A stretch of DNA of 17,793 nt from an uncultured candidate division Zixibacteria bacterium (GTDB lineage Bacteria; Zixibacteria; MSB-5A5; GN15; PGXB01). Shown in pieces: positions 11,082-17,793 of the stretch (position 1 is its first letter; every line of letters begins with the position of its first letter). Both the position numbers and the translations under genes were made by a program. The stretch covers positions 1 through 17,793 of the forward strand of contig CALAMC010000063.1 of assembly GCA_937925655.1 (NCBI GenBank), in the 5' to 3' direction. Below the pieces are notes generated by a model that had not been told where the DNA came from, searched no databases, and saw nothing but the letters and a program-made list of their open reading frames with translations.

Positions 11082-13112
11082 TTATTTCAGAAGCATCATC
11101 TTCCGCGTTTCAATGGCATCGTCCGCCTGGATGCGGTAGAAATAGACCCCGCTGGCGAACGATGAGCCATCCCATTCCACCGTATGATATCCCGGTGCGA
11201 ACCTCCGGTCGGCGATCGTTGACACTTTCTGTCCCATGATATTGTAAACATCGAGCGTCACATGCGCCTCGACCGGCAACTCAAAACTGATCTGCGTCAC
11301 CGGGTTAAACGGGTTGGGGTGGTTCTGGTGCAATGCGAATTTATCCGGTAATTGGGGCGAATCCGTATTATTTCCGGCAATTTCAAGATATAACGGCTCG
11401 GCATTCATACCACCCGCAAAGGCCGACACAATTTCGGCTTCACCGTCGATTTCAAGCAGTATTATCTCGCCTTTATCGATTTGATGCTGGCCATTAATGT
11501 CGAAGAGCGCCAGCTTAATCATATCGTTTTCCTGACGGGAATAGACCTGCATACCCTCGATCGGGCAGGAAACATTTGCCGAAATATCGGGCAGTCTTAT
11601 TTCCATTTCAATGCCTTTAATGACATCGACGGCGGCGAGCATAATAATGGTCTTGCCATCGGCATACTCGGTGGAGACCTCACCGCCATACGGAGCATCA
11701 GAATATTTCTGCATAGTCGAGCCAATCTTGTTCAAAGGCGATGACTCAACGCATCCGCAAACGAAATCACATACCGGAGGATTACCGTATTTGCAGTTAA
11801 TCAGCAACAAGATATCAAGCAGGTTAACAACGCAATCACCGTTGACATCCCCGCTTGAAGGTGGTATCGGTGCCGGACCGGCCGGATTGCCATAGACAAA
11901 ATTGATTACATACAGAATATCAACCAGATTAATAACGGGTTCACCGGCAGTATTAAAATCAGCATTGACATTGCCGGGAGTATATGCATAATCAGGATAG
12001 CTGTATGCCCAGCTGGTGTCGAACATTACATTTGGATAAAACACACCCGGTTCGGGGATTTTAAATGTATCCGCAAACAGCAGTCCCTCACCGTTTATAG
12101 TGCAGGTATCCAGTACTAATGCCAGGGAATCTGTCGAAATAAACGGTTCCAGAATACAGACGGTATCATAAGTATTAAGAGGATTCTCAAAATGAAGATA
12201 AGCCAGAACAGCATCTTCACCGGTCAATATGTAATCAAAATCCTGTCCGACCGCGGCGTATATCAAGACATTCTGATTTTCATTATCGATAATTTGACCT
12301 TTAAAACCCCAGCTTTCCACCGCAGTTCCAGCGAATGAAACACTCTTAAGCTCAAAATCCGTCGGTCCCCAGCAAAGCCCGACCTGATATGCCGCGGTGG
12401 GGGTTTGGCAACTGAATCGAACTGGGATAATCAATTCGGATTCATAAGAGTGGATGGAGGGAATATAGAGCAAATCAGGAATGGCAGAAATCCGAATATA
12501 ATCCATTTGACATGTTGCATCCCAGGGTTGAACAAAACTAAGTCTTACGATTTCGTTCGGAATTGACCAATTTTTCGTTACAACCGGGATAAAATCCGTC
12601 TCATCGTCTGTCTTAGCGAATAATTCCCCACCATCAGCACGAATTATCGTTTTCATTGTAATCCAAATGTTCTCTGATTGAGGGCTTGCAGTATGAACAT
12701 TTGTCCATTCATCCATAAACTTCCATCCGAATTGTTCCCATGGTTGTACATTAGGAAGATATGTAATGAAATCTGCATCATCATTTGTCGGACCATAGAA
12801 GAAACCAATCGCCGGTAAAGTATAATGCTGCCCATTACTAACAAGCCGAAACCGCGTTTCCGCGACAAACGGTAGATCCAAAGAGATAAACTTGTCGGCC
12901 CCGTCAGCAGAGGACCCATTCGATGATATACAAAGCCACCCGCTATCTAAATTAACATATACTGACGAATTAGTTGGCATCCATTCACCAGCGCCAATAA
13001 CATCAGTATCGAAGTGCTCTTCATACAGCACTTCCGCGTTTGATCGCTGCACCATAATCGCGAGCACGACAGATATGGCTACGACCACTAATATGGTTTT
13101 TAACTTTGGCAT
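11082..13112 (-). CDS. Secreted T9SS-cargo protein with dockerin-like repeats and type-A CTD (676 aa)
   Basis: Start set at the second ATG (13112) because a perfect GGAGGG SD lies 7 nt upstream of it; the product begins MPKLKTILVVVAISVVLAIMVQRSNA (signal peptide). The C-terminal HQNHPNPFNPVTQISFELP...VTLDVYNIMGQKV...GYHTVEWDG...SGVYFYRIQA...KMMLLK is a textbook T9SS CTD. Internal SGDVNGDCVVNLLDILLLINCKYGNP and NADFNTAGEPVINLVDILYVINFVYGNP are dockerin-like EF-hand repeats. Confidence 0.8.
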   Translation of the reverse strand: MPKLKTILVVVAISVVLAIMVQRSNAEVLYEEHFDTDVIGAGEWMPTNSSVYVNLDSGWLCISSNGSSADGADKFISLDLPFVAETRFRLVSNGQHYTLPAIGFFYGPTNDDADFITYLPNVQPWEQFGWKFMDEWTNVHTASPQSENIWITMKTIIRADGGELFAKTDDETDFIPVVTKNWSIPNEIVRLSFVQPWDATCQMDYIRISAIPDLLYIPSIHSYESELIIPVRFSCQTPTAAYQVGLCWGPTDFELKSVSFAGTAVESWGFKGQIIDNENQNVLIYAAVGQDFDYILTGEDAVLAYLHFENPLNTYDTVCILEPFISTDSLALVLDTCTINGEGLLFADTFKIPEPGVFYPNVMFDTSWAYSYPDYAYTPGNVNADFNTAGEPVINLVDILYVINFVYGNPAGPAPIPPSSGDVNGDCVVNLLDILLLINCKYGNPPVCDFVCGCVESSPLNKIGSTMQKYSDAPYGGEVSTEYADGKTIIMLAAVDVIKGIEMEIRLPDISANVSCPIEGMQVYSRQENDMIKLALFDINGQHQIDKGEIILLEIDGEAEIVSAFAGGMNAEPLYLEIAGNNTDSPQLPDKFALHQNHPNPFNPVTQISFELPVEAHVTLDVYNIMGQKVSTIADRRFAPGYHTVEWDGSSFASGVYFYRIQADDAIETRKMMLLK
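11085..11333 (-). other. T9SS type-A CTD of the 676-aa protein
   Basis: Residues ~598-680 of the track ORF: NHPNPFNP, VYNIMGQKV, SGVYFYRIQA, KMMLLK. Confidence 0.85.
11784..11969 (-). other. Tandem dockerin-like Ca-binding repeats within the 676-aa T9SS cargo
   Basis: Two about 24-aa segments (residues ~386-447 of the track ORF) match the dockerin pattern D-x-N-x-D-x-x-V-N-x-x-D-(I/L)-x-x-(L/V)-x-x. The second copy is near-canonical (DVNGDCVVNLLDILLLINCKYG). Confidence 0.5.
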
Positions 13113-13265
13113 ACAACCCTCCATTAAAAGATGATAAAATTTACCTACCTTCTAGTTTTTGCGCCGACAGGCCGAATATTAAAGGCCTGCTTTATTATAA
13201 TATTAGCTACCGAAAATCGATCGTGTAGAAAATCAAATAATAGTATTACTAATGATAAAATGGAT

Positions 13266-15629
13266 TTACTTATGATAAAAATCTATCCCGGCCGAAAGGT
13301 GGTGGATTATGGAATCTTTGTGATATACAACAATTTCGCTCTTTAATGAGTCTAATAAACGCTCAAAATCGCCAATTGGCTGTCGCCCAAGTTTAATTAA
13401 TAGATCGTTTATTTGTCTCGGGGCAGAATCTTCGGGGAATAATTTTATCGGAATATAATTACTGTCCATTACATAGTACAAATGAGGGAGTTCATACAAA
13501 TCGCTTTTGCGTTCTCCGTCCAGAATTATATTTACGCCTTCAGCCGTGGTGATTTGAAAACTCGATTTTTCTGAATTAACATTTATTGCATAAATACTGC
13601 TATATATGCCGGAACCAACTGAGAGCGGTGATTTAGGGAAAACCACATAATAATCTTGATTACCGGAAGGCATACCAGATAGCATAAAATATTCATCATC
13701 ATAGGGAGGTGCGATACCGGTTATTTCTTTCGGCTCCAAGATTGCTATAAAAGGACCCGGGAATCTATTATTGAGACCATAGCAAAGAATTTCTTCATTC
13801 CCGTCAGCATCCCTATCTATTCGGAACCCGCGAAGAAACCCCAAAGCACCGGGGTTTATATATGGGCCAGAGACACAATTCCCCTTTAAATCCAATAGTA
13901 TTACTTGTGCTCGCCCTGGGGCTGAAGCAAAAGAGCAGCAGATAATGTACTTTTCATTATTATTGTCTTCATAGGGCATTAATTCTGGTGCAATATAGAA
14001 TGCGTTTTCAGTAATTCCTGGGTAGCTTATATCTCCGGGATAGGTAGTTATTACATAAGGATTTTTTCTCCAAACAATTTTACCATCGTGGTCGAAAAAT
14101 ATGATCTCAGCGGGCAAATCAAGTGAATGGGGGGCAAAAAATAATTCCTTCTTGCCATCAGAATCGAAGTCTTCAATAAAATAAAGCATTTGATTCTTCA
14201 CTGAATCATTATATTTAGAGTCCTGTAAAGCCATTGGAAATTCGCAAGATGCCCATAAAAAATGATTATCAGAATTTATAGACAAAAATCGATTACCAAT
14301 GACTTTTATATGGTCAATATTCCAGTCAAACCATATCCAGGCTTTGGGATAGATAAGGCATATTAATACATACAATAGACACATCAACAGCGGCACCTGG
14401 AGTTTCGTCATGCGGCTGTACTTGACCACGCGGCGGGCCGTCAGCTGGCCGATACATACTTTTTCCGAACGAATAATATTGCGGTTTTCCAGAAGGTCGG
14501 AAAGATGAGCGGCTCCCACCATAAGCAACCGTCGATTGGGATATCGGACAGTCATTTTCTCCAATGCGCTTTGGGCCGTCGCCAGATTACCTTCAGGAAC
14601 AACCAAGTACTTGACCGGCGAGAAAAAGGCCCGTTCGACTTTAAACGCAATCGTTTCACCGTTGACCGGCAGAATGTGCCCCTCTTTGTCGATACTGCCC
14701 GTGAAGGCCACATCTGACGATAAAAACCGTTCATGCCGGACAATTTCCGGTTTCATAAGCTGGGTATAGGTCAAAAGCGCCGCCGCCAGGCCGATAGAAT
14801 CACCCGTGAACTGATGATTGCGGCCAGCGATATTGAAGTGAGCGTGATAGCGGCGAACAGCTTTATGCCGGAAATCACTGCGCTTGAATATGCCTCGAAC
14901 AGATTCCAGCGCGTCATAGGCCACCCCGATAAAGGGGTCATCGGGAGTCTTGATTTGATTGTCAAACGTGACTTCATCGATCGGCGCCGACTTGCGAAAC
15001 AACTCGACCCGGGCCGAGAGAAATTTCATCCGCCCGCGTGCGGCTATTCCCCGGCTGTCCTTTTCGACAAACAGGCACAGCGCCTGATCCTGATAGAGCG
15101 ACTCGCGATAGCCCTCCCATTCGGTCAGAATATTGAGCAATTCGGATTTGACCGGAGATTCGATATCCTTGTGCAACGAATAAATATGATACAAAGTGTC
15201 GAATTCATTCAAACCTTTAATTAAATCTCTATCTGCCGAATCAATAGCAGTATCGTCGCCCAGGATTTTCAGGGCGGTTTCATAATCGCCGACATAAAGC
15301 AATTTGCGGGAATATTCGCGGCGAACCGTGCCGAAGACATCTTTTATATTGTCATTATTCCGCTCCGATAATGTTTTCAATAAGGCATGAATCGACTTCA
15401 GTTCGTCGAATGAAAGGTTTTCAAGATTGTCTTTGGTGCACCTTCCGGTCAATTCGCCGATAAATTCGGCCAGGTAGGTCCAGTTCGATTGATGCGGCAA
15501 AGAGTCGGAATGATTTTTCCAGAAATCCAGCATCAGCGCCAGGCCGTCAACCGGATCCGTCTCGGTATTCAGGCCGGCCCGGAATTGCTCGAAATCCCGG
15601 GCAAATCGCAAAGGTGAAAAATCGCTCAT
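13266..15629 (-). CDS. Membrane protein: N-terminal helical region + cytoplasmic Lon-like (S16) protease domain, single TM helix, C-terminal periplasmic FG-GAP/beta-propeller-like domain (787 aa)
   Basis: Residues ~220-350 align block-for-block with the Lon proteolytic domain. [18 protein letters not shown] matches [31 protein letters not shown] matches [28 protein letters not shown] matches [47 protein letters not shown] matches [37 protein letters not shown] matches KTVLIPFEN. No Walker A / AAA+ module and no signal peptide. One hydrophobic helix at 410-428 ([19 protein letters not shown]) has a positive patch before it ([11 protein letters not shown]), giving N-in topology. The C-terminal 360 aa contain DxDxDG loops ([32 protein letters not shown]). 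Confidence 0.8.
   Translation of the reverse strand: [787 protein letters not shown]
14346..14402 (-). other. Single transmembrane helix separating the Lon-like domain (cytoplasmic) from the C-terminal sensor-like domain (periplasmic)
   Basis: 19 consecutive hydrophobic residues (aa 410-428), flanked N-terminally by R/K-rich sequence (positive-inside rule). Confidence 0.6.
14580..15032 (-). other. Lon-like S16 protease domain with candidate Ser278-Lys330 catalytic dyad
   Basis: Ser278 in GDSIG (codon at 14796-14798, rc tct) corresponds to the Lon GPSAG serine. Lys330 in IAFKVE (14640-14642) corresponds to the Lon GGLKEK lysine. Confidence 0.65.
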
Positions 15630-16477
15630 GCAAATAGCCTTATTTTTATGGCTTCTTTCGGATCGGTGATATCGAAAACTGCCGCCTGGTTGGGTTTCAA
15701 AAGCCGGGAGTCGAATGCATCCTTCTGCGCCACGACCGCCCTGATTGTCCCTTCCGCCGCCCGGCCCTCTATTTCCAGCACCCGGATATTTATCTGCGCG
15801 CCCGACATTTTGCGCTCGAACACGATTTCGATTTTGTCATCGCGGTCGCTGGTAAGCACGGTTCGACTGGAAGATTCCACCTTTTCGGCGTCATATTCGA
15901 TTTTTTCGAGTTCGAACACCGCCGAAGGCAATTTTATCTGCCATTTGAGTTTGTCAATATCTGTCAGGGGGGTGTCGATCGGGGCCCGGCCATTGGTATC
16001 GGTTAAAAATTCCCGCCCGATTTCGGGGATCTGGACCAATACGTTAGCTGTTTGTTCTGCGTTCTCGCCGATCAAGTGCAGAAAATCGGAGTTGGTTTTC
16101 GGATCGTGCATCACGCGCAGGATTATTTCGGGATCTTCCGAGCCAAGGGTTATCAGACTATGCATGAAGTCCTTTTCCTCGGGCGAGCCATCGGCGGCCA
16201 TCTGTCTTGGTATCGATATTCCCGGCGCCGATATGATAAAAAGCGGAATAATTTTCCCGTTTTCCAGTTGAGCAATAATACCGGCCGTTATCTTTTGGCC
16301 ATAGAAATCGATTTCGGCGTCATCGGATTTTGCTATTTCGTCTGCCAGGTGACGATACTGCTGACAATATTCGCGGCAGAACTCGCACTCGGCAAGATGC
16401 CGCTCCACTTCTGTAAGTTGCAGTCCCTCCAGCACTTTGTCGCAATATCTTTCCAGTTTATCTTTTGGCGGATGCAT
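15626..16477 (-). CDS. zf-HC2 (HxxxCxxC) anti-sigma-factor-like protein, apparently soluble (283 aa)
   Basis: The N-terminal LTEVERHLAECEFCREYCQQYRHL carries H27-x3-C31-x2-C34 (plus C12, C38), the signature of the ChrR/RsrA-type zinc-binding anti-sigma N-domain. No convincing TM helix. The stop overlaps the downstream start as ATGA (15626-15629), which implies translational coupling. GGGGA RBS upstream. Confidence 0.7.
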   Translation of the reverse strand: MHPPKDKLERYCDKVLEGLQLTEVERHLAECEFCREYCQQYRHLADEIAKSDDAEIDFYGQKITAGIIAQLENGKIIPLFIISAPGISIPRQMAADGSPEEKDFMHSLITLGSEDPEIILRVMHDPKTNSDFLHLIGENAEQTANVLVQIPEIGREFLTDTNGRAPIDTPLTDIDKLKWQIKLPSAVFELEKIEYDAEKVESSSRTVLTSDRDDKIEIVFERKMSGAQINIRVLEIEGRAAEGTIRAVVAQKDAFDSRLLKPNQAAVFDITDPKEAIKIRLFA

Positions 16478-16508
16478 AGTATTTCCCCTGCAACTTTACA
16501 CCAATATA

Positions 16509-17576
16509 TTAGCTGCCGATATCCCCAAGTGTAGAGTCATTGTTTATTTTATCTATAAAGTAATTCATCGCCGATCTTACCGTCGTATCCCAGATATGTT
16601 TATAACGTTTTTGATATTCCTTGCTGTCGATTTCAGGGAAAACCCTCTGGCAGTATGATGGCAGCGAATCATGCTCGCCCTTGGTGATAATATCGTCGAA
16701 ATATTCAGCCAGGGCATGTGAAAAAAGATCGGCCTGTTTGTCAGTTATTTTTTCTTTATCTATAAAATGCTGCAGGTGTGTCCGGCGCATGAAATTAACA
16801 GTACAATCCTTGGCCCGCAGATATTTTTTCAACGCAAAATCATCTTTGGGTCCCGGGGGAATTGGAATGACTGAATCGATATCGATAAATCTTAAATACG
16901 TTTCAATGAAAACCTTTTTCAGCTCGCGCACTGGAATGAAATTGGCGAATTCCTGCGATTTATTAAGTCTTTCGAAAATGTAGCGCACCATTTGCGGGAC
17001 AGTCTTCGATTGCTGAATAGCTTTTTCGGCCAGTATCATCAACTCGTAGTAATCTATTTCGGGCCGATTTATGTAAAGAGCATTTGCATTACATGCCAGA
17101 TAAATATACACAGTCGAGTTATCTTTCAATTTGGAGGTTGAATAATCTTTTGAAGCAAAAGCCCTATCAACTTGACGGGCGAATTTGGCCATAAGGGGAT
17201 CAATGTCTTCGTTAATTTTAGGCATCTCCTGCTTCACAAATCCAAATAGCTGACATTTGAAAACGGCATATATTTTTTCACCCACGGCAGAATCGAAAGA
17301 TGTATAACCCAGATTTTCAAAGTATTTAAACAGCATATGGGCAGGGCGGTTGTCTTGGGGCCATAAATAGCGAGAAACAATATCGACTGCCAGGTCGAGA
17401 ATATCCTTTTGCAGATTATCCGATTTTCGTGGAATCATTTTGCCGCGGCCGACGATAAAAGCCAAATATCCACGGGCCATACGCAGGCACATGTTGGCAA
17501 AAAGCTCCAATTTTCTGCAATCAACGTGATTGCGCAAAAATTCAATTAGATTTCGAATATCCGACTCTTCCGACAT
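16509..17576 (-). CDS. Hypothetical alpha-helical protein (355 aa), first gene of the three-gene cluster
   Basis: Long ORF, 32 nt upstream of the anti-sigma-like gene on the same strand. K/E/D/F/Y-rich; no catalytic motif, signal peptide or TM recognised. Only a faint resemblance of residues ~20-75 (ELFANMCLRMARGYLAFIVGRGK...SDNLQKDILDLAVDIVSRYLW) to sigma-70 region 2 of ECF sigmas. Confidence 0.7.
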   Translation of the reverse strand: MSEESDIRNLIEFLRNHVDCRKLELFANMCLRMARGYLAFIVGRGKMIPRKSDNLQKDILDLAVDIVSRYLWPQDNRPAHMLFKYFENLGYTSFDSAVGEKIYAVFKCQLFGFVKQEMPKINEDIDPLMAKFARQVDRAFASKDYSTSKLKDNSTVYIYLACNANALYINRPEIDYYELMILAEKAIQQSKTVPQMVRYIFERLNKSQEFANFIPVRELKKVFIETYLRFIDIDSVIPIPPGPKDDFALKKYLRAKDCTVNFMRRTHLQHFIDKEKITDKQADLFSHALAEYFDDIITKGEHDSLPSYCQRVFPEIDSKEYQKRYKHIWDTTVRSAMNYFIDKINNDSTLGDIGS

Positions 17577-17612
17577 AATAAACTAAAGGCGCCTTACAAG
17601 ATAACCTGGCCA

Positions 17613-17641
17613 AAGATAAAAAATTCTCTGTTGGATGTCAA
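17613..17641 (-). promoter_or_regulatory. Candidate sigma70-type promoter for the three-gene cluster
   Basis: On the minus strand: TTGACA (rc of 17636-17641), 17-nt spacer, TATCTT (rc of 17613-17618). The predicted TSS is about 30 nt upstream of the ATG at 17576. Confidence 0.3.
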
Positions 17642-17793
17642 TGATTTGGAATTAAATGTGACAAGGCAAGCAAGTAACGGGGAAGTCTCATATTCTGCCG
17701 ACAAAAACTTTGCCTATTGAAATTTAACCGAATAAGATATCGGTTCCATCGGTCCTGACTGGATTGGGGACAATCCGCAATTAAAAAGCTCCC

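Follow-up and report, generated by a model that had tools for sequence, protein, structure and literature searches.

Zixibacteria-type bacteria carry a conserved and apparently undescribed signalling gene module, which consists of genes for a 355-aa protein, a 283-aa anti-sigma-like protein, and a 787-aa membrane-bound Lon-type protease. We analysed it in the window, the whole stretch of 17,793 nucleotides from an uncultured candidate division Zixibacteria bacterium, and in related genomes. We lean toward the view that the trio, together with an adjacent T9SS cargo gene, forms a transmembrane signalling system of four genes and two promoter types that works as set out below. A sequence-only reading of this DNA had put the trio forward as a candidate undescribed signalling system, and the comparative evidence bears this out.

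Gene content and conservation of the module

The three open reading frames of the sequence-only reading are present in the window, all on the minus strand (Table 1). The stop codon of the 283-aa gene and the start codon of the 787-aa gene overlap as ATGA, confirming the translational coupling claimed for this pair, and across loci the two genes usually overlap by 4 nt or are separated by 0-1 nt. Conserved co-occurrence of the trio was also found: in species-representative genomes, the 355-, 283-, and 787-aa genes keep the same order and strand at 38 of the 43 informative loci, meaning those with enough upstream DNA. This count combines 36 scripted loci with two (L027 and L028) that the script missed owing to an over-extended ORF call. 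Two to three paralogous modules occur per MAG.

Table 1. Positions of the module's features in the window
Feature	Position	Strand	Remark
T9SS cargo gene, 680 aa	11082..13124	-	proposed downstream target
P2, TTGATTTTCTACAC-N16-CTAAT	13202..13236	-	36 nt past 787 stop
Gene, 787-aa single-pass membrane protein	13266..15629	-	
Extracytoplasmic beta-rich sensor domain (putative), residues 436-787	13269..14324	-	FG-GAP/VCBS-type DxDGDGxxE loops
TM helix, ~residues 408-431	14337..14408	-	N-in
Lon-type protease domain, ~residues 177-390	14460..15101	-	fold and aligned catalytic residues
K330 codon	14640-14642	-	
S278 codon	14796-14798	-	
Gene, soluble 283-aa ZAS-type anti-sigma-like protein	15626..16477	-	
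M93-A94-A95-D96 codons	16190..16201	-	predicted Lon cleavage site AA|D
H27-x3-C31-x2-C34 codons	16376..16399	-	zinc-binding ZAS motif
H2 codon	16472-16474	-	fourth zinc ligand of 283-aa protein
P1, TCTACA-N17-CTAAT	16508..16537	-	within last codons and stop codon of 355 gene
Gene, 355-aa protein	16509..17576	-	all-alpha, three domains, without known family
Sigma-70-type promoter TTGACA-N17-TATCTT	17613..17641	-	37 nt upstream of 355-aa gene

The 787-aa protein is a membrane-anchored Lon protease without an ATPase

From its N terminus, the 787-aa protein comprises a helical domain of ~176 residues, a Lon S16 protease domain, a TM helix, and an FG-GAP-type ectodomain. Foldseek matched the structural model (pLDDT 88) to the isolated Lon proteolytic domains 3wu6, 6x27, and 6wys (E 1e-9, TM 0.73-0.79). 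By sequence, archaeal LonB protease domains were closest, though as weak matches, and GDS(278) and K330 align with their catalytic Ser and Lys. Every homologue (37/37) has G276, S278, G280, and K330, and a search of the protein for an AAA+ module found none. The AAA-less Lon S16 domain proposed earlier thus stands, as residues ~180-390 have the Lon protease fold and the Ser/Lys pair are the aligned, invariant catalytic residues.

The protein has one hydrophobic segment, residues 408-431 (Kyte-Doolittle 2.19), with four K/R residues N-terminal to it, and the model places a helix at 408-426. No signal peptide was found on the protein. Based on the single TM segment, the preceding K/R residues, and the lack of a signal peptide, the topology is predicted to be N-in/C-out, in agreement with the claim that the Lon domain is cytoplasmic. 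The model has beta strands at 440-732. Among 37 family members, the Pfam families FG-GAP_3 and FG-GAP matched the ectodomain of 13 and 4, respectively, and its profile matched YesW/PL11 and haemolysin-related propellers (E 1e-4); these matches uphold the beta-propeller-like outer domain of the sequence-only reading. Identity to the nearest relative is 37% in the ectodomain versus 89.7% in the Lon domain, and the ectodomain-coding segment is recombinant and of low GC (0.39). Ectodomains of the module copies diversify rapidly, which is typical of sensors.

Membrane-associated Lon-like proteases exist, archaeal LonB being one example, and PADLOC matched the 787-aa protein weakly to CRISPR-Lon models (E 0.016, about 0.02). 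Both points would fit a membrane protease with a housekeeping or quality-control role, or a Lon fold that acts as a binding module and whose catalytic activity is irrelevant. Its linkage to zf-HC2 would then be incidental or serve another purpose such as CalpL/BrxL-like anti-phage defence. We regard this explanation as very improbable. The Ser-Lys dyad is invariant in every homologue, general proteolysis is unlikely because the protein lacks an AAA+ unfoldase, and translational coupling of the protease and anti-sigma genes is seen in almost all loci. The gene tables inspected for three loci list no CRISPR, cas, or defence genes, and PADLOC returned nothing for the 355-aa and 283-aa proteins. 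The module also occurs in multiple copies, each adjoining a T9SS cargo gene and each with a fast-changing ectodomain, as a sensor would have.

The 283-aa protein is a soluble zinc anti-sigma-like protein

An N-terminal zinc anti-sigma domain, a variable linker, and a C-terminal beta-rich domain of ~185 residues make up the 283-aa protein. The window's protein matched zf-HC2 below Pfam's cut-off (E 0.0018), 17 of 25 homologues matched it as well (best E 4e-6), and the family profile gave weak matches to RsiW, DdvA, and RslA. The four zinc ligands (H2, H27, C31, and C34) are conserved without exception, in 25/25 aligned and 41/41 locus homologues; H2 and H27 are 25 residues apart, as are the corresponding ligands of ChrR (H6/H31/C35/C38). 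The zf-HC2 anti-sigma-like identity first suggested is therefore supported by the invariant ZAS motif and the homologue matches. The suggested solubility agrees with a maximum hydropathy of 1.28, hence no TM helix.

The linker contains [LMIF]AA[DH] in 41/41 homologues, 60-70 residues past the zinc motif and with variable flanks. In the alignment, A94 and A95 never vary and D96 is at least 90% conserved, while the surrounding linker varies. A cut at AA|D would leave a C-terminal ...AA degron on the anti-sigma domain.

The module has its own promoter-like motif and an adjoining T9SS cargo gene

A two-block promoter-like motif, TTCTACAA-N16-CTATT, has two fixed locations: the 355 gene's 3' end (P1) and the interval between the protease gene and the downstream T9SS cargo gene (P2). 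In the window, P1 lies ~30 nt upstream of the 283-aa gene and P2 ~80 nt upstream of the cargo gene, and the two have TCTACAC...CGG[C/T]AGCTAATAT in common. P2 is the window's top PWM match on both strands (33.1 bits). P1 is the second-best minus-strand PWM site in the window, but its score with the P2-trained PWM, 8.2 bits, is under the 12-bit cut-off, which counts against our main reading.

Across loci, the motif is found at the P2 position in ~38, and P1-position sites were found at ~23 other loci at >=12 bits using a PWM trained only on P2 sites (17 by regex). The motif regex occurred 56 times in 729 kb versus 12.3 expected, and 45 of these occurrences are in sense orientation at the P1 or P2 position; only 2/63 PWM matches at >=12 bits were antisense. 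Further copies of the motif stand ahead of large flanking T9SS cargo genes (L026 and L035) and of an orphan paralogue in L006. The motif lacks dyad symmetry, and its placement is strict and promoter-like, 25-90 nt ahead of start codons. It is not found upstream of the 355 gene itself, which again counts against the main reading, as typical ECF sigmas are autoregulated and have their motif upstream of their own gene.

The 355 gene is preceded by TTGACA-N17-TATCTT, the best promoter-like site in 13000-17793 (10/12 matches). Sites with at least 10/12 matches lie upstream of the 355-like gene at 13/38 loci, compared to 7/190 control segments. This sigma-70-type promoter is likely the constitutive entry point of the operon.

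The 680-aa cargo protein has a signal peptide, a variable N-domain, dockerin-like repeats, and a Por_Secre_tail CTD (Por_Secre_tail E 2.7e-8; TIGR04183 E 2.5e-10). At 20/38 loci or more, the protease gene is followed on its own strand by a gene for a protein with a T9SS CTD, and 9/9 downstream genes tested encode T9SS cargo by CTD (Por_Secre_tail in eight, FlgD_ig/CHU_C in L046). By phmmer, the downstream gene is similar to the window's cargo protein in only 20/38 loci, a point against the main reading. The sequence-only reading did not include this fourth member of the module or the module's own promoter motif.

The 355-aa protein is the proposed released factor

We propose that the 355-aa protein, once released, acts as a transcription or promoter-specificity factor. 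It has no sequence match in Pfam, NCBIfam, or the PDB. For the family of 39 members, no similarity to the sigma-70 family was detectable against Pfam, a PDB profile search found no sigma-70-family proteins, and hhalign detected no similarity to ECF sigmas. These results count against the main reading, as does a C-terminal domain unlike the canonical sigma-4 HTH. Fold similarity to sigma factors is weak and marginal, with no significant match. The middle domain (145-233), a beta-hairpin followed by three helices, resembles a winged helix.

At three loci (L049, L053, and L054), the slot of the 355 gene is taken by a canonical ECF sigma, upstream of homologous anti-sigma and Lon-TM genes (TIGR02937 46.7 bits, cut-off 42.9; Sigma70_r4 E 2e-7). 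L049 lacks the motif, and its absence from this 355-less variant ties the motif to lineages that carry 355-type genes. The sequence-only reading had made the 355-aa protein the released or regulated partner, possibly a divergent sigma. The first part gains from the recurrent ECF variant and the module-linked motif; the second does not, given the lack of sequence similarity to sigma factors and the marginal fold similarity.

The missing sigma similarity and the hairpin-then-three-helix layout would suit a protein of another kind, a sequence-specific DNA-binding activator, with the protease/anti-sigma pair acting as proposed. Such an activator would bind two CTA-containing blocks ~22 bp apart on one helix face, recruit the housekeeping holoenzyme, and be sequestered by the ZAS-domain protein. 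The motif offers some support, as its blocks TCTACA and GCTATT have CTA in common at ~22-nt spacing, and it resembles a weak sigma-70 promoter (TCTACA versus TTGACA, 4/6; TATTnT versus TATAAT, 4/6; 18-nt spacer). However, ZAS domains are known only as binders of sigma-2/sigma-4 (RsrA, ChrR, RslA, and RsiW), the variant slot holds a genuine ECF sigma, and the asymmetric motif with its strict spacing from start codons argues for a promoter. We consider an activator unlikely.

Four loci (L006, L039, L045, and L048) retain the protease gene and P2 motif but have no 355/283 pair nearby, which counts against the main reading; because of these loci, trans-acting factors must exist. This observation, the absence of sigma signatures in the 355 family, and a nearly identical motif in all paralogous modules would be expected if the 355-aa protein were an accessory (adaptor, scaffold, or anti-anti-sigma) and an anti-sigma-controlled ECF sigma encoded elsewhere recognised P1 and P2. 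Yet at 38/43 loci the 355 gene sits next to the pair, in the place where sigma genes normally precede anti-sigma genes, and in the 355-less variant that place is filled by an ECF sigma rather than left empty. The ECF variant also lacks the motif, linking the motif to 355-type genes. An accessory role is thus quite improbable in our judgment.

Proposed mechanism

Returning to the 355-aa protein as the released factor, we infer binding partners, a cleavage site, a use for the degron, a type of signal, and a reader of the motif as follows. The sigma-70-type promoter would transcribe the 355-aa gene, probably reading through into the next two genes, and the zinc anti-sigma domain of the 283-aa protein (H2/H27/C31/C34) would keep the 355-aa protein inactive. 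The 787-aa protein would act as a one-polypeptide sensor-protease. Its FG-GAP-type ectodomain may respond to a cue from outside the cytoplasm, for instance a cell-surface ligand, a polysaccharide, or the cargo's state, and the signal would pass the single TM helix, most likely via induced oligomerisation, to activate the cytoplasmic AAA-less Lon domain (Ser278/Lys330). This domain would then cut the variable linker of the anti-sigma after the invariant Ala-Ala (M/L-A-A|D), and the N-terminal fragment, now ending in ...AA (a ClpXP-type degron), would be degraded. The freed 355-aa protein would direct transcription from TTCTACAA-N16-CTATT, with P2 driving the adjacent T9SS cargo gene and P1 re-expressing the anti-sigma and protease genes as feedback.

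Comparison with known systems

In the type III CRISPR system CalpL-CalpT-CalpS, the AAA-less Lon CalpL cuts the anti-sigma CalpT at LAA|A, as mapped experimentally, and the exposed LAA degron of CalpT is needed for sigma release. The sequence-only reading drew this parallel, which is strengthened by the matching [L/M]AA|D motif in the 283-aa linker. In both systems, the protease is an AAA-less Lon with a Ser-Lys dyad that is joined to a sensor domain, the specific substrate is a co-encoded, soluble, two-domain anti-sigma (predicted here), and the output is a released transcription factor (proposed here). They differ in the sensor: CalpL has a cytoplasmic cA4-binding SAVED domain, and the 787-aa protein an FG-GAP-type domain that lies outside the cytoplasm beyond a TM helix. 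A CRISPR context is absent at the loci inspected here. PDB sequence searches find LonB, not CalpL, so the proteases have no sequence relation beyond the Lon fold. The predicted cut lies ~95 residues into the 283-aa protein versus ~204 in CalpT, the partner is a protein without known family rather than an ECF-like sigma, and the target is a T9SS cargo gene, unlike in the CRISPR system.

Craspase (gRAMP-TPR-CHAT)/Csx30/CASP-sigma, in which a sensor-activated protease cuts a sigma inhibitor, has the same tripartite design of protease, inhibitor, and sigma. However, its protease is a caspase-like CHAT, not a Lon, activated by target RNA in a CRISPR complex; the system lies wholly in the cytoplasm, and none of its proteins is related to ours.

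Regulated proteolysis of membrane anti-sigma factors is known from RseA (DegS, RseP, and ClpXP), RsiW, and FecR-type signalling. As in the scheme proposed here, these pathways lead from an extracytoplasmic signal through anti-sigma proteolysis and a C-terminal ...AA degron (VAA in RseA) to sigma release. Their anti-sigma itself spans the membrane, and a periplasmic site-1 protease and then an intramembrane site-2 metalloprotease cut it. In the module, the anti-sigma-like protein is soluble and the protease itself is the membrane-spanning, sensing part, so that one polypeptide would replace the sensor, site-1, and site-2 steps.

The 283-aa protein resembles the soluble ZAS anti-sigma factors RsrA and ChrR (N-terminal domain of the latter) in its HxxxCxxC zinc motif with an upstream His at ChrR-like spacing, and like them it is cytoplasmic and encoded beside its partner. 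What inactivates RsrA and ChrR is oxidation or singlet oxygen rather than a dedicated protease. The 283-aa family has in addition the conserved AA|D linker and the C-terminal domain, and its usual partner is not a recognisable sigma.

Lastly, the 787-aa protein has the proteolytic domain fold and Ser-Lys dyad of the S16 Lon proteases (LonA, archaeal membrane LonB, and LonC) without their AAA+ ATPase module. Its membrane anchor follows the protease domain, whereas that of LonB is inserted in the ATPase, and it has a large ectodomain and a helical N-domain.

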